From positions 136,950 through 200,949 of the forward strand of contig JAHCBA010000005.1 in the NCBI GenBank assembly GCA_019634625.1: a stretch of 64,000 nucleotides of DNA, given 5' to 3'. Position numbers and translations under genes: made by a program. Below, in pieces: positions 20,653 through 55,907 of the stretch. The first letter of the stretch is position 1. The number at the start of each line of letters is the position of its first letter. The DNA is from Verrucomicrobiia bacterium (lineage in GTDB: Bacteria; Verrucomicrobiota; Verrucomicrobiia; Limisphaerales; CAIMTB01). The notes under the pieces were generated by a model. It searched no databases. It was not told the origin of the DNA and saw only the letters and a list, made by a program, of their open reading frames with translations.

Positions 20653-20758
20653 GGTCAGGCTCACTAATGTTGACCCTACGGCAACGAGACTACGGCAATA
20701 AGTCAGACCCCTATTTGTTGACGCCACTGGCTATATAGTCAGGCTCACAGTTGTTGAC
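20653..20758 (+). repeat. Array of three 21-bp dyad motifs (GTCAGGC-N7-TGTTGAC) in an AT-rich island
   Basis: Units at 20653-20675 (GGTCAGGCTCACTAATGTTGACC), 20702-20722 (GTCAGACCCCTATTTGTTGAC) and 20738-20758 (GTCAGGCTCACAGTTGTTGAC). Each is preceded by an A/T-rich patch (aata, aataa, atata). The array lies upstream of lpxA, which is on the minus strand. Confidence 0.7.
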
Positions 20759-20849
20759 GCCTTGCTCCTGCCCGAAACCCACAAGAATTTCCGTGCGGCC
20801 ATTGGCGAAAGGTTCGCCGAGGATTCCGGCGCCGATCAGGTGCATCCCG

Positions 20850-20998
20850 GAGTTGTGGGTGAGGAGCCAGCGAATCGGAAGGGCGAGCTCTGCGAGTCCT
20901 CAACACAACGCTCCACTCCGTTGCAGCCTCGTGGAACTCGGCCCTCCGAAGCGCCGCTTGGCGTAGTTCGTACCTCCACCCACAACTCCGGGATGCAC
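20850..20998 (+). mobile_element. MITE-like repeat, copy 2 (intact)
   Basis: TIRs are GTGCATCCCGGAGTTGTGGGTG ... CACCCACAACTCCGGGATGCAC. It is flanked by the 10-bp direct repeat GGCGCCGATC (20838-20847 and 21000-21009). Confidence 0.8.
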
Positions 20999-21149
20999 GG
21001 GCGCCGATCCCTCAATGGGCTTTTCTCTTGAGTCGCCCCTCCCCCAATTCCTACGCTGCCCCCCGTCTTTCGCCGTCATGGAACGCGATGCGCGCCTTTT
21101 CCAGGGCTACTCCTCCGATTGGTCGCCGCGCCTGTTCTGAACGCCTTCC

Positions 21150-32592: not shown

Positions 32593-32774
32593 TTTCAGAC
32601 AGGCTCCCTGGCGGTGCACCCCGGGTGGTGGGTGAGGAGGCAGAGAATCGGAGGGACGGGCTCCGCGAGTCCCCAATCCATGGCACCCCTCCCCTGGGGC
32701 CTCATGGAACCCGGCCCTCCGGGGCCACGCTTCGCGAGGCTCGCACCTCTCTCCCCACAGCTCCTGAAGGCATC
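32593..32774 (+). mobile_element. MITE-like repeat, copy 3 (diverged, with the 5' extension TTTCAGACAGGCTC)
   Basis: GTGCACCCCGGGTGGTGGGTGAGGAGGCAGAGAATCGGAGGGACGGGCTCCGCGAGTCC...GGAACCCGGCCCTCCGG...CGCACCTCTCTCCCCACAGCTCC. The extension TTTCAGACAGGCTC recurs in reverse at the partial copy at 55838-55907. Confidence 0.7.
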
Positions 32775-32813
32775 GGTTTCCGACGCCGGCCCAATTTCCG
32801 GCTTGCCCTGAAG

Positions 32814-36025: not shown

Positions 36026-36091
36026 AGAGCCGGCAAGAGTCTCGCCGGGGAAACAAAACTCAAGAGCGAATTCACGAACGGGCTCGCGCCG

Positions 36092-36240
36092 GTGCATCCC
36101 CAAGTTGTCGGTACCGAGCCAGCGAACCGGAGGGACGAGCTCCGCGAGTCCTCAACCCAACGCTCCACACCGTTGCGGCCTCGTGGAACTCGGCCCTCCG
36201 AAGCGCCGCTTGGCGGAGTTCGCACCTCTACCGACAACTC
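36092..36240 (+). mobile_element. MITE-like repeat, copy 4 (intact)
   Basis: GTGCATCCCCAAGTTGTCGGTACCGAG ... CTCTACCGACAACTCCGGGATGCAC. It is flanked by the 9-bp direct repeat GGCTCGCGC (36081-36089 and 36242-36250). Confidence 0.8.
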
Positions 36241-36303
36241 CGGGATGCACTGGCTCGCGCGCTCGCGCGAGCCCGGAGATCCGTTGTCAAATGGGATCGG
36301 GAC

Positions 36304-37695
36304 GTGCTGCCATGCCGCATGCACCCGCTGTCATCCTCCCCGGGTCGGCCCGTCCCGAAATCCTCCCGTCGCCGCTTCCTCGCCTCCGGTTCCGCCGCAG
36401 CAGCCGGCGCCGCGTTGTCCGGGCTGCCCCTGCCCGCCGTGCATGCCTCGGGCAGCGACACCCTCCGAATGGCGCTGATCGGCTGCGGCGGGCGCGGGAG
36501 CGGTGCCGTGGCCAACGCGCTCGAAGCCTCCGGCGGGCCCGTCCGGCTGGTCGCCATGGCCGACCTCTTCGAGAATCGCCTCACCGGTTCCCACCACGCG
36601 TTGTCCGGGGCCTATGGCGACCGGATCGACGTGCCGCCGGACCGGCGGTTCATCGGGTTCGATGCCTTCCGACATGCCATCGACTGCCTGCGTCCCGGTT
36701 CGGGCGACATCGCCCTGCTCACCGGCTATGCCGGGTTTCGTCCGGCCCAGCTCGAGTACGCGGTCCAGCGCGGGGTGCATGTGTTCATGGAGAAATCGTT
36801 CGCCACCGATCCACCCGGCGTGCGCCGCATCCTGCGCGCCGGCGAGGAGGCCGATCGGAAGGGCCTCAAGATCGCGGCCGGCCTGATGTGCCGCCATTCC
36901 CGCAACCGCCAGGAACTGATCCGCCGGATCCGCGATGGAGAGCTGGGTGACATCCTGATGATCCGCGCCTACCGCATGGAGGCGTCCGGGCCGCTCGGAC
37001 GAAAACCGGAAGCGATCCCGGAGATCGAGTGGCAGCTCCGCAATTTCACCAAGTTTCTATGGGTCTCGGGCGGCCTGTTCGCCGAAATGGACATCCATCA
37101 AGTGGACGAGATCTGCTGGATCAAGGACGCCTGGCCCGTGAACGCTCATGGCGTCGGAGGCCGCGTCGCCAACAGCACGGATTGCAGCCAGAACCTCGAC
37201 TCCTTCTCCGCCGAATGGACCTTTCCTGACGGCACGCGCGCCTTTGACGTGGTCCGCTACATCCCGCGCTGCCACGACGAATTCGCGACCTACATTCATG
37301 GCACGCGCAGGGCCGCCCAGTTCTCCGGCAACATCCACGCCGCCACGGTCCGGATCTTCAAGGACCAGCGCATCGAGAGGGGCAATCTCGAATGGGAGGC
37401 ACCCCGCGAGGAAACCACCGCCTGGCAGGCCCAATGGAACGATCTGCTCCACGCGATCCGTCACGACCTGCCCCTCAATCAGGCCCGCCCGGCCGCCCTC
37501 TCAAATCTCACCATGATCCTGGGCCGCGCCGCCATTCACATGGGCCGCATCGTCTCCTGGCAGGAAGCCATGACCTCATCCTTCCAGTTCTGCCCGAACC
37601 TCGAGGATCTTTCCCTCGATGGGCCCGTCCCCGTGCAAGCGGACACTTCCGGCCGCTACCCCGTTCCCATTCCGGGTCAGTGGATCGAGATCTGA
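36304..37695 (+). CDS. Gfo/Idh/MocA-family oxidoreductase with a twin-arginine signal
   Basis: Tat motif SRRRFLASGSAAAAGAAL. Rossmann N-terminus LRMALIGCGGRGSGAV. Confidence 0.8.
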   Translation: MLPCRMHPLSSSPGRPVPKSSRRRFLASGSAAAAGAALSGLPLPAVHASGSDTLRMALIGCGGRGSGAVANALEASGGPVRLVAMADLFENRLTGSHHALSGAYGDRIDVPPDRRFIGFDAFRHAIDCLRPGSGDIALLTGYAGFRPAQLEYAVQRGVHVFMEKSFATDPPGVRRILRAGEEADRKGLKIAAGLMCRHSRNRQELIRRIRDGELGDILMIRAYRMEASGPLGRKPEAIPEIEWQLRNFTKFLWVSGGLFAEMDIHQVDEICWIKDAWPVNAHGVGGRVANSTDCSQNLDSFSAEWTFPDGTRAFDVVRYIPRCHDEFATYIHGTRRAAQFSGNIHAATVRIFKDQRIERGNLEWEAPREETTAWQAQWNDLLHAIRHDLPLNQARPAALSNLTMILGRAAIHMGRIVSWQEAMTSSFQFCPNLEDLSLDGPVPVQADTSGRYPVPIPGQWIEI

Positions 37696-37810
37696 CCGCG
37701 CTGCCGTATATCCAGCCTGCCCTCCCGAGGTTGCCGCGAGATCGCTGCTCAGCCCCGCAGTCCGCCAAAGGGTTGTTGCTGGCAACCAGCATCCCCGGGA
37801 CCATTCCGCC

Positions 37811-38470
37811 ATGAGTATGCCATCTTGGCTGGGAACCGGTCTGGGATTGGCGCTGGTGTTTGGCGCTTGTTCCAAGCCGCCCGAGCCCCCGGCGGCTGCC
37901 CCGCCTCCGCCGCTCCCGGAAGTGTCGGCCGAGGAACGTGCCGACGTTCTGGCCAGGGGCCGTGCGATCGCCGGCGAAACCTTTGAGGTGCTGCGCGGCA
38001 ACCTTCAGACCGCCATCCAGGCGGGCGGTATCCGCAACGCCCTGCCATTCTGCTCCATGGCCGCGTCCCCGTTGACCGCGGGAATGGCCACGAAGCATGG
38101 GGTCACCCTCCGCCGGGTCACCCACAAGACCCGCAATCCTGCCGGCGCCGCCACCCCTGCGGAGTTGGCTATCCTCGAAACCTTCAGGCAGGCACTCCGG
38201 GGTCCTGGCATCACCCCAACCAACCCGCCCCCGCCGATGGTGACCAACTTCGATGCACGCACCCTCTCCTTCTTCGCGCCCATCGTCATGGCCCACGAGC
38301 TCTGTCTCAAATGCCACGGGGAACCCGGACGCGACATTCTTCCGGAGGACTATGACATCATCCTACGGTTATATCCGCAGGATCGGGCGACGGGGTTCGA
38401 GATGGGTCAATTGCGCGGGGCATGGAGAATTGACTTCCCAAGGGCGCTTTCGGATCGGCCGGCGGAATGA
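37811..38470 (+). CDS. DUF3365/Tll0287-like lipoprotein with a c-type heme motif
   Basis: Starts MSMPSWLGTGLGLALVFGAC (lipobox; ATG at 37811, in the frame of ORF 37619..38470). It has a single CXXCH motif (CLKCH). Confidence 0.7.
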   Translation: MSMPSWLGTGLGLALVFGACSKPPEPPAAAPPPPLPEVSAEERADVLARGRAIAGETFEVLRGNLQTAIQAGGIRNALPFCSMAASPLTAGMATKHGVTLRRVTHKTRNPAGAATPAELAILETFRQALRGPGITPTNPPPPMVTNFDARTLSFFAPIVMAHELCLKCHGEPGRDILPEDYDIILRLYPQDRATGFEMGQLRGAWRIDFPRALSDRPAE

Positions 38471-38602
38471 ATCGTGTGGGCCGTGCCACCGGGCCATGGA
38501 TGCGCGCCATTGAATTCTCGATGAGCCATTGGCTGCTTGGGCACGTTGGATCTTCCTCGGCTACAGCAAGCGTTACTCCGGCACCCAGCGCTGAGCATTC
38601 AC

Positions 38603-38645
38603 GAAAAAGCCACGTCGCCGTCCCGGCTTAAGGTCGGGACGGCGA
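38603..38645 (-). terminator. Intrinsic terminator (minus strand)
   Basis: 11-bp GC-rich stem TCGCCGTCCCG / CGGGACGGCGA (38615-38625 and 38635-38645) with a 9-nt loop. On the minus strand it is followed by a T-run (CTTTTTC, plus-strand 38603-38609). It lies 22 nt downstream of the small ORF stop. Confidence 0.7.
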
Positions 38646-38666
38646 GGTGGTTTCGAGCGTCGGGCC

Positions 38667-38756
38667 CTAAAGGACCGCGGCGAAGGCCCCTCCGAGAATC
38701 AGGGCTCCGAACACCCACCAGAGGGCGATTTCAAGACGACCGGGGCAAGCATTCAT
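38667..38756 (-). CDS. 29-aa hydrophobic small protein (candidate, unannotated size class)
   Basis: Hand translation: ATG at 38756, MNACPGRLEIALWWVFGALILGGAFAAVL, stop TAG. It has one predicted TM helix and is followed by the terminator at 38603-38645. It is too short for the ORF track. Confidence 0.4.
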   Translation of the reverse strand: MNACPGRLEIALWWVFGALILGGAFAAVL

Positions 38757-38838
38757 AATCGAAACTTTGTGACGTCCAAGTTACATATCGGTTGCTTGAT
38801 GGCAACGCCCAAGTCACGGATTCGTGACAATCAATCCG

Positions 38839-38997
38839 GTGCATCCCGGAGTTGTGGGTGAGGAGGCAGCGAATCGGAGGGACAAGCTCAGCGAGTCCTC
38901 CATCCATTGCACCACTCCGCTGCGGCCTCGTGGAACTCGGTCCTCCGAAACGACGCTTCGCGAAATTCGCACCTCTCCCCACAACTTTGGGATGCAC
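38839..38997 (+). mobile_element. MITE-like repeat, copy 5 (intact)
   Basis: GTGCATCCCGGAGTTGTGGGTGAGGAGG ... CCTCTCCCCACAACTTTGGGATGCAC. The direct repeat GTGACAATC lies on both sides (38824-38832 and 39000-39008). Confidence 0.8.
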
Positions 38998-39215
38998 GGG
39001 TGACAATCCCGAATCCTGAATTCTGAGGGAGCGTTTCGGCTTGAGGGCTGCCGAGGTCGTTTGGGGGGGGCTCAAGATTCAAATTGCCGATGCGAGGAAG
39101 GTCAGACGGGAGAGTTCAGGCGGGTTGGGGTTGGAAGGTTGGGAGAGGCCATTAAGACGGGAATGGCCTTGGGAGGTCGGTCAGCCGGCAAGCCCTATCC
39201 TATATCCTATAGTGC

Positions 39216-39337
39216 GCCCGGCACCTAGATGTTGACGCGCCGCGACGAGGCCACCCGCCGCGGTCACAAGGGAATTCTGACGAGTACCGGGCCGAAGCAC
39301 GCCGTCATCGTCAGCAGTCATCAATATAACGCCTGAC
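39216..39337. repeat. Dyad-motif copies in duplication unit 1
   Basis: 39216-39236 GCCCGGCACCTAGATGTTGAC (plus orientation). 39317-39337 GTCATCAATATAACGCCTGAC, the reverse complement of GTCAGGCGTTATATTGATGAC. Confidence 0.6.
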
Positions 39338-39506
39338 CGATTATATTCATTGTCAATTGTCAAAATCACGATGGACTGGCTTGCGGGCTGATTTCTGGGC
39401 CGATGCGACAGATCGGGCAGGGGGGCGCCACGTCTCGGTTGGCCCGGGTCGCCGCTGGCCTCGACCTCCCCCCAAAATTCCTGGGCCGGGGAACGCAGCC
39501 CGGTCA

Positions 39507-39826
39507 CGATCAGATCAATGCCTCGGGTCGCAGCACCAGCTTGCCGGCCAAGCCGCCCTTCTTCAGGACCGTGCTCTCCTCCTGGAGGCGGTGAGCGGCG
39601 GCAGTTTCCGACAGGGGGAGAATCCGGTCAATCCGCGGGCGGTACTGACCACCGGTCAGCCAGCGGTTCAAATCCTGCGCCGCGTTGCGCTGCTCGTCGG
39701 GTGAGGCGGCGAACATGACGAAGCCGTGGAGGGAACAGCCCTTGACGTAGAAGGGTCCCACGGGGAACGGGGGGCGGGCCTCCCGGCCGGCCATGAGCAC
39801 GGGCGGCCAGCGCGGATTGTGAGCCT
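39507..39826 (-). pseudogene. Displaced 3' fragment of the quinone oxidoreductase gene (last roughly 96 codons)
   Basis: Track ORF 39510..39800 is identical to the Qor C-terminus except for one D/E change. It has no N-terminal two-thirds. There is a 10-bp deletion relative to the full copy just upstream of the homology end. Confidence 0.75.
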
Positions 39827-39832
39827 GGCATG

Positions 39833-40020
39833 TGGATGTTGACGCGCCGCGACAAGGCCACCCACCGCGGGCACAAGGGAATTCTGACGAGAACAGGACT
39901 GAAGCGCGCCGTCATCGTCAGCAGTCAGCCATATAGCGCCTGACCTTTTATTGGCATCGAGTCATCCATAGAAAGCCTGACCTATTATCTTTTTATCGAG
40001 TCATCAATAAAACGCCTGAC
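39833..40020. repeat. Dyad-motif copies in duplication unit 2, including three tandem iterons (37-39-bp period)
   Basis: 39833-39853 GCCTGGCATGTGGATGTTGAC (plus). In reverse orientation: 39924-39944 GTCAGCCATATAGCGCCTGAC, 39961-39981 GTCATCCATAGAAAGCCTGAC and 40000-40020 GTCATCAATAAAACGCCTGAC. Each is followed by a TATTAT-like patch. Confidence 0.7.
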
Positions 40021-40187
40021 GTATTATTTATCGAATCGCAGCGGACTGGCCAGCGGGGCTGGTTTCGGGCCCGATGCGGCAGAACTGGCAGGGGGGGCGC
40101 CAGATCTCGTTTGACCCGGGTCGCCGCTGAGCTCCGCGGGTGGGCTAGCCCCCCCCATTCCAGGGCAGGGAACGCCACCCGGTCAGA

Positions 40188-41192
40188 TCAGATTAGTGCC
40201 TCGGGTCGCAGCACCAGCTTCCCGGCCAAGCCGCCCTTCTTCAGGACCGTGCTCTCCTCCTGGAGGCGGTGAGCGGCGGCAGTCTCCGACAGGGGGAGAA
40301 TCCGGTCAATCCGCGGGCGGTACTGACCACCGGTCAGCCAGCGGTTCAAATCCTGCGCCGCGTTGCGCTGCTCGTCGGGCGAGGCGGCGAACATGACGAA
40401 GCCGTGGAGGGAACAGCCCTTGACGTAGAAGGGTCCCACGGGGAACGGGGGGCGGGCATCCCGGCCTGCCATGAGCACGTACCGTCCGCGGGCGGCCAGC
40501 GCGGCAACCGCCAGGTCGAAGTCCGGTTCGCGCGTGGTTTCCCACCAGACATTGACCCCGGCGGGGGCGACCTTCTTGAGTTCGGCAGCCACATCCTGCG
40601 TGCGGTAGTTGAAGACCGCGTCGGCGCCGAGCTGGCGGCAGAGCTCGACCTTGGCATCGCTCCCGGCCGAGCAAAAGACCCTGGCACCCAATGCTTTGGC
40701 GATCTGGAGTACGGCTGTGCCCACACCGCCGCTCCCACCCTGAATGAAAATGGACTCGCCCTTCTGCAGCCTGGCCTCCCGCACCAGGCCCAGATGGGCG
40801 GTGATGCCCACCAGGGCACCTGCAGCGGCCAGATCGTCGCTCACCCCCGCAGGCGTCGGATAGGCCCAGACCTCGTCCACGGCGACCTGCTCCGAAAAAG
40901 TCCCATGCCGCCCGAGGAGACCCTGGTTGCTGCCCCAAACGCGGTCGCCCACCCGGAACTGTTTCACGTCGAGACCCACGGCTTCGACCACGCCGGCGAA
41001 GTCGCACCCGACGACAAACGGGAGCGGGATCTCCATGGGCACCAGCCCGGACCGCAAATAGGTGTCGATCGGGTTCACGGCGACCGCATGGACGCGGACC
41101 CGAAGCTGATTGGCCTTGATGGCGGGGAGGGGCAGTTCCCCGTACTGGATTACCTCCGGGGGTCCGGTCCGTTCGAGGTAGGCGGCTTTCAC
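40188..41192 (-). CDS. qor: NADPH:quinone oxidoreductase (zinc-type ADH/MDR superfamily)
   Basis: Lies in ORF 40188..41285. The start was set at the GTG at 41192 (VKAAYLERTGPPEVIQYGELPLP). Rossmann motif GGSGGVGTAVLQIAKALGA. Confidence 0.85.
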   Translation of the reverse strand: MKAAYLERTGPPEVIQYGELPLPAIKANQLRVRVHAVAVNPIDTYLRSGLVPMEIPLPFVVGCDFAGVVEAVGLDVKQFRVGDRVWGSNQGLLGRHGTFSEQVAVDEVWAYPTPAGVSDDLAAAGALVGITAHLGLVREARLQKGESIFIQGGSGGVGTAVLQIAKALGARVFCSAGSDAKVELCRQLGADAVFNYRTQDVAAELKKVAPAGVNVWWETTREPDFDLAVAALAARGRYVLMAGRDARPPFPVGPFYVKGCSLHGFVMFAASPDEQRNAAQDLNRWLTGGQYRPRIDRILPLSETAAAHRLQEESTVLKKGGLAGKLVLRPEALI

Positions 41193-41429
41193 GCCGCCAC
41201 GTTGGCGCAGGCCCGGTTCGGGAGCAACGCCGGAGCCACCTCGCAACGTGGGTTCGACCGAACCCGGTCGCTGGACGGATGGCACCGACGGAAATTGTGT
41301 GCATATGCACGCTGTTTAGGATGATTTCAACGGCGGCTCCGAAGGGTTGCGCTTCCATGGGGTGTCGCCCTCGCGAACCGGGACGTCCGGGGCTTGGAAT
41401 GTGGGCCGGATCAGGGCTTGATCTCGCCC

Positions 41430-42560
41430 ATGAAGTCCCCCTTCGTCGGCGCATTCCGCATCCTATTGGTAGCGATCCTCGGCCTCTCCGGACTGGCCCG
41501 GGCGGAAACCTGGCACGTGTATTTCGGTACCGGCGGACCGGGGGCGAAGGGCATTTACCGGTCCAGCTTCGATACTGCTTCGGGCCGCCTCGCCCCGGCG
41601 GAACTCGCCGCCGAGATCGCGTCTCCGGGTTTCCTGGCGGTTCACCCCGACGGCACAAAGCTGTACGCCGTGGCCGGCTTTCCCGGCGGGCCCGGCGTGG
41701 CCGCCTATCGGATGGCACCCGACGGGTCCCTCGCTCCCCTTGGCACGTCACCGACGGGCGACGGCGGCGGCGCGCATGTGGCGGTCCATCCGAGCGGACG
41801 ATTCCTGCTCACGGCCCAGTATGGCGGCGGGTCCGTGGCGGTGTTTCCTCTCGATGCCGAAGGCCGCCCGGGTGTCGCCACGCTGCATCGCCATGAAGGG
41901 GGCTCGCGCGTGGTCGCCAACCGCCAGAACGCCCCTCACCCGCACTGGTGCGGATTTTCGCCCGACGGCCGTTATGCCCTGGTTCCGGATCTCGGCATGG
42001 ACGGAATCGTCATCTACCGGGTGGACGTCGAGCACGGCACGCTGGAACGGCACGGCTTTGCGGCGTCGGTGCCGGGTGGCGGTCCCCGCCACATGCGCTT
42101 CTCCATCGACGGACGGTTCATCCATCTCCTCAACGAGCTATCCCTGTCGGTGACTTCCTTCGCCTGGGATGCCGCCTCGGGAACAGCACGGCGCCTCGGC
42201 ACAATCCCGGCCCTCAGTGAAGAGGCCAAGGCCAAGGAGGCCTTCAACTCCGCCGCCGAGATCCTGGTCCATCCGAGCGGCCGGTTCGTGTATTCCTCCA
42301 ACCGCGGCCACGACACCGTCACCGTCTATCGAGCGGATCCGGAAACGGCGGGGCTCGAGGTGATCCAGGTGCAACCCATCCGCGGCGCCTTTCCCCGCAA
42401 CATCAACCTGGCCCCCGGCGGAGGCTGGCTGCTGGCCGCCGGGGCCGACTCGAACACGGTCGCCGTCCATCGCGTGAACTCCGATACCGGCGAGCTCACC
42501 TACCAGACCCGGGGCATCATCAATGTCCCCGCCCCGATCTGCATCGTGTTCGCCCGTTGA
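41430..42560 (+). CDS. Lactonase, seven-bladed beta-propeller family (6-phosphogluconolactonase-like), secreted
   Basis: Starts MKSPFVGAFRILLVAILGLSGLARA (ATG at 41430). Family-typical blocks: GIYRSSFDTASGRL, HPDGTKLYAV, NYGGGSV-like (QYGGGSVAV), HPHWCGFSPDGRYALVPDLGMD. Confidence 0.75.
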   Translation: MKSPFVGAFRILLVAILGLSGLARAETWHVYFGTGGPGAKGIYRSSFDTASGRLAPAELAAEIASPGFLAVHPDGTKLYAVAGFPGGPGVAAYRMAPDGSLAPLGTSPTGDGGGAHVAVHPSGRFLLTAQYGGGSVAVFPLDAEGRPGVATLHRHEGGSRVVANRQNAPHPHWCGFSPDGRYALVPDLGMDGIVIYRVDVEHGTLERHGFAASVPGGGPRHMRFSIDGRFIHLLNELSLSVTSFAWDAASGTARRLGTIPALSEEAKAKEAFNSAAEILVHPSGRFVYSSNRGHDTVTVYRADPETAGLEVIQVQPIRGAFPRNINLAPGGGWLLAAGADSNTVAVHRVNSDTGELTYQTRGIINVPAPICIVFAR

Positions 42561-55827: not shown

Positions 55828-55837
55828 CTTCCATCCG

Positions 55838-55907
55838 GTGAATCCTGGAGTTGTGGGTCGGGGCGCGAACTTCGTGAAGCGTTGCTCGCCTGAGAGCCTG
55901 TCTGAAA
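55838..55907 (-). mobile_element. MITE-like repeat, copy 6 (internally deleted remnant, reverse orientation)
   Basis: GTGAATCCTGGAGTTGTGGGTCGGGGCGCGAACTTCGTGAAGCG... matches the reverse complement of the right arm. It then joins directly to CCTGTCTGAAA, the reverse complement of the TTTCAGACAGG extension seen at 32593. Confidence 0.55.

Follow-up and report, generated by a model that had tools for sequence, protein, structure and literature searches.

The qor locus of this uncultured Verrucomicrobiae bacterium raises the question of how the 3' end of a gene, along with the non-coding DNA that follows it, came to be present twice, and in what setting the two copies acquired the differences that now separate them.

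Layout of the repeat at the 3' end of qor

Within the window, i.e. the whole 64-kb stretch of DNA that was analysed, the last ~100 codons of qor and ~300 bases downstream of it are present as two tandem copies, arranged head-to-tail. The features are as follows.

39209-39815: unit 1, 607 nt, consisting of X and then the qor 3' fragment
39209-39509, minus strand: X, non-coding, downstream of the truncated qor copy, the distal part of unit 1
39312-39344, minus strand: the single iteron in X, minus-strand core GTCAGGCGTTATATTGATGAC, a member of repeat family D3
39510-39815, minus strand: 5'-truncated qor fragment, with its stop codon at 39510-39512 and 96 collinear codons up to 39801
39815/39816, no strand: novel junction, at which the qor codon region ...CCAGCGCGG is fused to the left end of X' (ATTGTGAGCC...)
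39816-40504: unit 2, 689 nt, consisting of X' and then the 3' end of intact qor
39816-40187, minus strand: X', non-coding, 372 nt, directly downstream of intact qor, in unit 2
39919-40027, minus strand: three iterons in X', at 39919-39951, 39956-39988 and 39995-40027, with spacings of 37 and 39 nt
40188-41192, minus strand: intact qor, NADPH:quinone reductase, 334 aa, GTG start

A direct repeat of 300 nt (39508-39807 and 40186-40485, 96% identity ungapped) is far beyond chance, and is preceded by a second, more diverged one (39209-39344 and 39816-39951, 86%), with further matching blocks at 39385-39462 and 40056-40134. These matches and the alignment confirm the tandem duplication, and the order of its parts, reported in a preliminary description of this DNA. 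Two of its boundaries had to be moved: the stop codon of the fragment (TCA on the plus strand) lies at 39510-39512 and not at 39507-39509, and the homology between X and X' reaches ~20 nt further left than had been claimed, which gives the extents listed above. The single novel junction is what a simple tandem duplication requires. The inferred breakpoints show no visible microhomology, and since the left end of X and X' is diverged, their position is accurate to within a few bases. No other allele-like doubling was observed within the window.

The second repeat copy is the last 317 nt of the intact gene (40188-40504), and it is the unit lying upstream in gene orientation that keeps qor intact. 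Its product is identical to NCBI MBX3744631.1, 'MAG: NADPH:quinone reductase [Verrucomicrobiae bacterium]', and has Pfam matches to ADH_N (PF08240, GroES-like), ADH_zinc_N (PF00107, Rossmann) and ADH_zinc_N_2 (PF13602). This domain set and the size of ~330 aa are those of a zinc-independent MDR quinone oxidoreductase (Qor / zeta-crystallin-like). More than 7000 homologues were retrieved at E <= 1e-100 and, among the best 120, those that carry a name are called NADPH:quinone reductase.

The other copy is 97.6% identical to 40188-40479. An 11-nt deletion, missing from the preliminary description, removes TACCGTCCGCG (40480-40490 of the intact gene) between 39801 and 39802; beyond it only 14 more qor-derived bases precede the junction. 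The fragment matches only the C-terminal part of ADH_zinc_N_2 and takes in just the end of the Rossmann domain (Pfam positions 77-127 of 134). It still has a 96-codon open frame (39510-39800, GTG at 39800), but public gene calls list no product, and a scan of 38400-41500 gave no promoter-like site. With its start region lost and the 11-nt deletion, 39510-39815 is a non-functional relic, to be annotated as a qor pseudogene fragment, and nothing indicates a present-day function for the two-unit structure.

Divergence of the coding and non-coding parts

Over the 291-nt collinear stretch the coding copies show seven differences. As previously described, six of these, in five codons, are synonymous in the codon alignment: Leu CTA/TTG (two sites), Gly GGG/GGC, Glu GAG/GAA, Ser TCG/TCA and Ala GCA/GCC. 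The seventh is a conservative replacement, Asp GAT/Glu GAG. A formal calculation of dN/dS, which the preliminary description had proposed, gives a dS of 0.084 (Sd = 6 over 75.7 synonymous sites), a dN of ~0.005 (Nd = 1 over 215 non-synonymous sites) and a ratio of ~0.06. The probability that at least six of seven changes are synonymous is between 0.0014 and 0.011 depending on the assumed mutation spectrum, a strongly GC-to-AT, transition-biased one raising it to ~0.01; the test is post hoc and the argument is carried by only seven differences.

The non-coding parts differ far more. X and X' have 42 mismatches in 292 aligned nt, i.e. 85.6% identity over the ungapped columns, in keeping with the 80-88% estimated earlier by eye, with 14 gap events and a distance of 0.16. 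X has a single copy of the 33-nt iteron and X' has three, so that the copy number does differ as claimed. Coding divergence is six-fold lower (7/291 vs 42/292, p = 1e-7), and no indels are present in 292 coding nt, as against the 14 gap events in ~300 nt of X. The dS of the coding part and the distance between X and X' are not significantly different (p = 0.18). The maximum likelihood change point is at 39519 (support interval 39519-39544), 7 nt inside the coding sequence from the stop codon, so that divergence switches from high to low within ~10 nt of it. The flank of X adjoining the stop codon is as diverged as the remainder of X, without a conversion-like gradient.

The closest relative (L076), at 16% DNA divergence, has a single qor end and lacks both X and a 198-nt spacer, and was used to polarise the changes. 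Three are derived in the fragment (G>A, G>A, C>T) and two in the intact gene, all synonymous; the Asp/Glu site is ambiguous. Identity to this outgroup is 83.2% for the 3' end of the intact gene, 83.9% for its 5' part and 82.9% for the fragment. Both copies being equidistant from it, they should both stem from one narrow clade. Neither a second strain nor a donor haplotype was found, the closest public relative being 90% identical in protein.

The synonymous excess, the divergence contrast and the change point at 39519 support the proposal, already made in the preliminary description, that both 3' ends were under protein-level constraint. Judged from this pattern of substitution, they suggest that each unit gained its differences while it still terminated an intact qor gene under selection.

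No intact ORF is conserved between X and X' in the 372 nt between the copies, and no Rfam family reached its gathering threshold; one permissive match (mir-969, E = 0.11) falls in the D1 repeat, outside X. Blastn of X found no match in 75 qor loci of GTDB species representatives, and X has no additional copy within the window. By similarity search a plasmid collection returned nothing relevant (the sole match, of 44 nt, is due to chance) and a phage collection returned nothing. The iteron-pair pattern is absent from viral contigs. The conserved 20-mer CACAAGGGAATTCTGACGAG from X, the only metagenome query, gave two matches to the same unrelated intergenic sequence, which is not otherwise similar to X; they were taken as chance. 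The iteron motif is also present at 20.6 kb, in an ordinary promoter region.

Two possible roles of X were discarded. As an RNA, neither X nor X' folds better than its shuffles in either orientation (z = +0.98, -0.61, +1.24, the second value being that of X'); as a promoter, the one weak sigma-70-like match, in X', was not above shuffles.

Origin of the two units

The reading that we favour, tentatively and at somewhat less than even chance, is that this is a genuine two-unit tandem repeat whose units are two allele-level variants of one locus, joined recently. The variants would have come either from two closely related lineages (~2.4% coding and ~15% non-coding divergence) or from two formerly complete tandem copies, and a recent recombination would then have produced the present arrangement. 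The route of this recombination is wholly inferred. A homologous segment from a close relative may have been inserted, with homologous recombination within qor resolving one end and an illegitimate join at 39815/39816 the other; Campbell-type insertion of circularised DNA, followed by loss of the intervening material, would be equivalent. Alternatively, two full copies may once have been present, one of which lost its 5' two-thirds by deletion. The junction has no microhomology that favours any one mechanism. RecA-dependent deletion quickly removes 300-nt direct repeats of 98% identity lying a few hundred bases apart; since such repeats are lost quickly, the juxtaposition should be much younger than the divergence.

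If this reading is true, the locus documents, on a small scale, natural recombination between two closely related lineages of this uncultured Verrucomicrobiae bacterium, with the alleles side by side, and would allow allele-level divergence to be estimated directly within one genome (dS ~0.08, non-coding about twice that). It would also mean that synonymous-only differences in a partial gene copy are no proof of derivation from a phage or an island. The locus is nevertheless an ordinary kind of genomic scar, which reveals neither a new mechanism nor a new function.

A simple duplication decaying in place is not supported: it does not fit 7/291 vs 42/292 differences, six of seven of them synonymous in the coding part, a fragment free of indels and a switch at the stop codon. 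An old in-situ tandem duplication, arising by slippage or illegitimate recombination, in which repeated gene conversion homogenised the fragment while X and X' drifted, is a more elaborate version, and we consider it unlikely. It predicts head-to-tail units with one novel junction, as observed, and the numbers of changes per copy (~3 vs 2) are compatible with it; conversion needs long identical stretches, and the difference in iteron number and the indels in G/C runs would hinder it in X. However, it predicts that about three-quarters of the differences lie in the unconstrained fragment, with ~40% of them synonymous, against the six of seven observed (P ~0.02). It also leaves the absence of indels from the fragment unexplained, and recombination frequent enough to homogenise a repeat should also lead to its deletion. 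Divergence changes at the stop codon and not at an arbitrary tract end, and the adjoining X is without a gradient; this likewise disfavours gene conversion limited to the coding part, which the preliminary description had offered as an alternative.

The possibility that the assembly strung together two co-occurring strains of the MAG population, so that the 'duplication' is two alleles of a single-copy locus, appears quite improbable to us. The sequence does come from a MAG contig (213.8 kb, carrying MBX3744631.1) and the divergence pattern is exactly that expected between two alleles. In another MAG (L029), 460 bp at the corresponding position of qor are perfectly duplicated in tandem, which looks like a product of assembly or curation. 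Against this, the junction joins qor to the start of X' without a shared k-mer and has an 11-nt deletion 14 nt from it, and graph or overlap assemblers need supporting reads for such joins. The window has no other allele-like doubling, and a contig of 213 kb speaks against heavy strain mixing. For the purpose of MAG quality control, the locus is worth validating at the read level.

The L029 duplication starts in the same qor codons as ours. A recurrent hot spot was nonetheless set aside: the L029 copies are 100% identical, lie on a 'curated' scaffold and have their own 10-nt microhomology, and the case was treated as unrelated.

The preliminary description had proposed the scar of a site-specific integrating element (attL/attR-like), which carried its own qor 3' end, displaced the resident one and has since been mostly lost. 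We regard this as improbable. The synonymous-biased differences and the conservative Asp/Glu change do resemble those between icd and icdC of E. coli (PMC13626634), X begins right after the stop codon and is missing from the closest relative together with the 198-nt spacer, and the iteron-like repeats could be sites for a recombinase or replication protein. However, a single integration predicts unrelated DNA, of the element and of the chromosome, past the two gene ends; here X and X' can be aligned as homologues from end to end. Were two elements present in tandem, a third qor 3' copy should lie left of X, and none, even degraded, was found by blastn and tblastn. The copies are separated by only 372 non-coding nt, and no tRNA or tmRNA that could act as an attachment site is present in the window. 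In agreement with the earlier statement that no integrase is present, Pfam scans, which covered most of the large ORFs between ~30.3 and 50.5 kb, matched no integrase family, nor any mobile-element family among those within ~10 kb. The families found were parB, ketohexokinase, BlaR1-M56, TPR, Gfo/Idh/MocA, Tll0287-like, qor, lactonase, DUF2339, BNR and FdhD, and several of the ORFs had no Pfam match. The failure to find X in plasmids or phages, the lack of the iteron-pair pattern in viral contigs, the unrelated metagenome matches of the 20-mer and the sharing of the iteron motif with the promoter region at 20.6 kb all weigh against an element, as does the outgroup comparison, in which the 3' end of the intact gene is no more diverged than its 5' part.

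It is very unlikely that X is itself a non-autonomous integrative element of ~0.3-0.4 kb, attaching at the final ~300 nt of qor, present as a tandem pair, its recombinase elsewhere and the original gene end lost; the iteron-like repeats would be the protein-binding sites of such an element. That the 96-codon frame is itself expressed and selected, so that constraint acts in situ, is highly improbable: although the frame survives and clearly derived replacement changes are absent from the fragment, the scan gave no promoter-like site, just the end of the Rossmann domain is encoded, no such product is on public record, and the 11-nt deletion lies just upstream.

Comparison with known systems

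In E. coli K-12, the e14 prophage (and likewise phage 21) is flanked by icd, an intact gene, and by icdC, a C-terminal pseudogene fragment of it that follows at a distance. The two differ mainly by synonymous changes and conservative Asp/Glu replacements, since each 3' end has a history as the end of a functional gene, in separate genomes (PMC13626634). The qor locus shares with it the intact gene, the C-terminal fragment and the synonymous bias. However, the E. coli copies have a 15-kb prophage with an integrase between them and unrelated DNA past each, whereas those of qor have 372 non-coding nt between them and the homologous X and X' beyond. At qor no recombinase gene or remnant was found beside the repeat in the ORFs scanned, and the working 3' end comes from no more distant a source than the rest of the gene.

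An ordinary bacterial tandem duplication with a partial-gene pseudocopy has the same appearance, with head-to-tail units (here 607 and 689 nt), one novel junction, and an intact gene and a truncated copy on opposite sides. It differs in that divergence at qor is non-uniform; a decaying duplicate would give neither the synonymous bias nor the switch at the stop codon.

The arrangement may also be compared with homology-facilitated illegitimate recombination or Campbell-type insertion, in which one side is joined within homology and the other with little or no microhomology. For qor such a mechanism is proposed from the divergence pattern only. The product of such an event can hold the donor and recipient alleles side by side.

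Anatomy and divergence of the repeat

Reading of the sequence from 38800 to 41400, together with a repeat search and pairwise alignment, revealed a head-to-tail repeat of two units at the 3' end of qor, the NADPH:quinone reductase gene.

Features of the repeat
39209-39815: unit 1
39816-40504: unit 2
41192 (GTG) to 40188-40190 (TGA, on the complement), minus strand: intact qor, 334 codons
39510-39815, minus strand: qor fragment, a 5'-truncated second copy of the last 317 nt of qor (stop at complement 39510-39512)
39816-40187: X', non-coding, following intact qor in gene orientation
39209-39509: X, non-coding, following the fragment in gene orientation
40188-40202, minus strand: Qor C-terminal extension (1246-1260 in L076, a contig of the closest relative)

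The intact gene carries the Pfam domains ADH_N, ADH_zinc_N and ADH_zinc_N_2, as in NADPH:quinone reductases, and its product is 100% identical to NCBI MBX3744631.1, from a 213.8-kb contig of a Verrucomicrobiae MAG. Compared with 330-residue homologues ending in ...VLRP, Qor has a C-terminal extension of four residues, which is EALI in the window, where both copies encode it, and EALS in L076. The fragment is collinear with qor over 292 nt, followed by an 11-nt deletion (TACCGTCCGCG, 40480-40490) and then by 14 nt up to the junction, where its far edge is joined to the left end of X'. The layout of the preliminary description was correct, with coordinates off by a few bases and the 11-nt deletion unmentioned. 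Its counts were also reproduced: over 291 collinear coding nt the copies differ at seven positions, six of them synonymous (in five codons) and one a replacement, Asp in intact qor and Glu in the fragment.

The formal dN/dS calculation it had called for (Nei-Gojobori; 75.7 synonymous and 215 non-synonymous sites, the codon straddling the deletion being left out for dN) gave a dS of 0.084 and a dN of about 0.005. The probability that at least six of seven random substitutions on this sequence are synonymous is 0.0014 for a uniform spectrum, rises to 0.003 when the observed transition share is used and reaches 0.008 to 0.011 if GC-to-AT and transition bias are strong, which upholds the earlier inference that both 3' ends were constrained. 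Between X and X', 42 of the 292 aligned positions differ and there are 14 gap events, for a Jukes-Cantor distance of 0.16; X contains one copy of a 33-nt iteron and X' three. Coding and non-coding divergence are unequal (p = 1e-7); that of synonymous sites did not differ significantly from that of X (p = 0.18). In a change-point analysis with two rates, the divergence along the aligned unit switched at 39519 (2-lnL support interval 39519-39544), inside the reading frame and 7 nt from the stop codon, and X next to the stop codon is as diverged as its remainder. The assembled sequence does contain the repeat, whose units differ as two alleles of a selected gene and its unselected flank do.

Comparison with relatives and the surrounding repeats

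The locus was compared with that of relatives, as the preliminary description had proposed. Among GTDB species representatives, Qor protein identity is at most 82%, and X-like DNA was absent from all 75 qor loci. The closest public relative, P0121 (90% protein and 84% DNA identity), is represented by the Logan contigs L076 and L077. In L076 a single qor 3' end is followed by 72 nt, a copy of the dispersed palindromic repeat D1, a conserved small ORF of 29 codons and a convergent Gfo/Idh/MocA gene. L076 has no counterpart of X', the fragment, X or a 198-nt spacer, which in the window separate the qor stop from D1.

Landmarks, D1 copies and motif arrays
38834-39010: D1 copy downstream of qor, shared with L076 (there ~1334-1445, the orthologous position)
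38667-38756, minus strand: small ORF, 29 codons, shared with L076
36304-37695: Gfo/Idh/MocA gene, shared with L076
15205-15340 (minus strand), 20835-21011, 32608-32784, 36087-36263 and, partial, 55835-55886: other D1 copies
39317-40020, minus strand: motif array, three sites in X and X'
20654-20758, plus strand: motif array, three sites in the divergent lpxA / GST-like intergenic region

When the differences were polarised with L076, three changes were derived in the fragment and two in intact qor, all synonymous; one of the seven sites was uninformative, and the polarity of the Asp/Glu site is ambiguous, with Asp in L076 and Glu in more distant homologues. Since the copies are equidistant from L076 (83.2% identity for the intact-gene 3' end, 82.9% for the fragment) and this 3' end is no more diverged than the 5' part of intact qor (83.9%), both copies come from one narrow clade. 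On these identities, neither appears to be a surrogate of distant source.

The neighbourhood is otherwise syntenic, except that L076 lacks a Tll0287-like (PF11845) lipoprotein gene located between the Gfo/Idh/MocA gene and the small ORF (37619-38470, plus strand). A GC-rich hairpin (38607-38653) and a T5 run follow the small ORF (MNACPGRLEIALWWVFGALILGGAFAAVL), whose predicted product is probably a small membrane peptide; in L076 both the ORF (MSACPNRLEIILWWVFGALILGGAAAAVL) and the region upstream of it are conserved. D1 is about 165 nt long. Its terminal inverted repeats measure 23 nt, its core is strongly conserved, and it folds as a single long imperfect hairpin with 61 pairs predicted. The 64 kb contain five to six copies, all intergenic. 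D1 had no match among Rfam families and appears REP- or MITE-like.

The iteron core motif, GTCAGRC-N5-WWTKDTGAC, has six occurrences in the window, where 0.03 would be expected, and all fall in two arrays. In both cases a D1 repeat comes next, and after it a same-strand gene, which is the GST-like ORF (21150) for one array and the small ORF (38756) for the other. Given the lpxA / GST-like sites and this shared order, a regulatory or structural role in the host is more likely for the motif than that of a plasmid- or phage-type iteron, and the arrays may be operator or binding-site arrays.

A perfect 460-bp tandem duplication (762-1221 and 1222-1681) was observed in another Verrucomicrobia MAG scaffold, L029, labelled 'curated'. 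It starts at most 6 codons from the start of the window fragment, passes the qor stop and ends in the start of a uvrA-like gene, with 10-nt microhomology (TGATCGTCAT) near its breakpoints. Most probably it was produced by assembly or curation or arose very recently, and its position in qor probably agrees with that of the window fragment by coincidence.

Origin of the second copy

We tentatively favour a family of explanations in which the units diverged separately, were recently joined side by side, and one copy was truncated. While still apart and diverging, they would have belonged to two close lineages or been two complete copies. The juxtaposition could have arisen when homologous DNA of a close relative was inserted through one homologous and one illegitimate join, when a circular fragment or element entered by Campbell-type insertion and the DNA in between was lost later, or when a deletion occurred inside a larger duplication; the data are compatible with all three. 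Where direct repeats of 300 nt with 98% identity lie a few hundred bases from each other, RecA-dependent recombination readily deletes them, and the present arrangement is therefore probably younger than the divergence between its units.

A duplicate decaying in place, changing at every codon position and by indels at about the rate of X, was rejected: it predicts about 27 coding differences, mostly replacements, and several indels, and seven were seen, with one replacement and no indels. Gene conversion of such a duplicate from intact qor could hold down the number of differences, but most of the standing differences should then be in the fragment, which is unconstrained, and only about 40% should be synonymous (P about 0.02 for six of seven). 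Nor does it offer a cause for the divergence boundary meeting the stop codon, and the gradient expected in adjoining X is absent; we consider it unlikely. With a MAG as the source, strain-chimeric assembly must also be considered, since two co-assembled strains would give this pattern. However, no k-mer is shared at the unit junction, next to which the 11-nt deletion lies, and a chimera is distinctly unlikely.

The preliminary description had read the locus as the scar of an integrating element at the qor 3' end, a view that did not hold and to which we give little credence. The copies are only 372 non-coding nt apart, and no third qor copy, needed for a tandem element pair, was found left of X. 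Among large ORFs scanned over about 20 kb around the locus, none matched an integrase family; they belong to ordinary chromosomal families, several having no Pfam match. The window contains no tRNA genes, X was not found in plasmid or phage collections, and the iteron-pair pattern was absent from viral contigs. A metagenome search with an X 20-mer returned an unrelated match only: a 21-nt stretch (TCACAAGGGAATTCTGACGAG) is exact in an unrelated bioreactor metagenome contig (L078 1866-1886, L079 6221-6241), intergenic and without further similarity, probably by chance. The fragment has no evident present function, and that it is itself expressed is very improbable.

The best-known parallel is E. 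coli icd and its C-terminal pseudogene icdC, which lie at the two ends of prophage e14 and differ by synonymous changes and Asp-to-Glu replacements (PMC13626634). The qor pair has the same selection signature. Its anatomy differs, however, since the DNA following both qor copies, X and X', is homologous, rather than belonging to an element at one copy and to the chromosome at the other. The fragment adds a further example to a known kind of relic, in which part of a gene is copied and a second allele is thereby kept.
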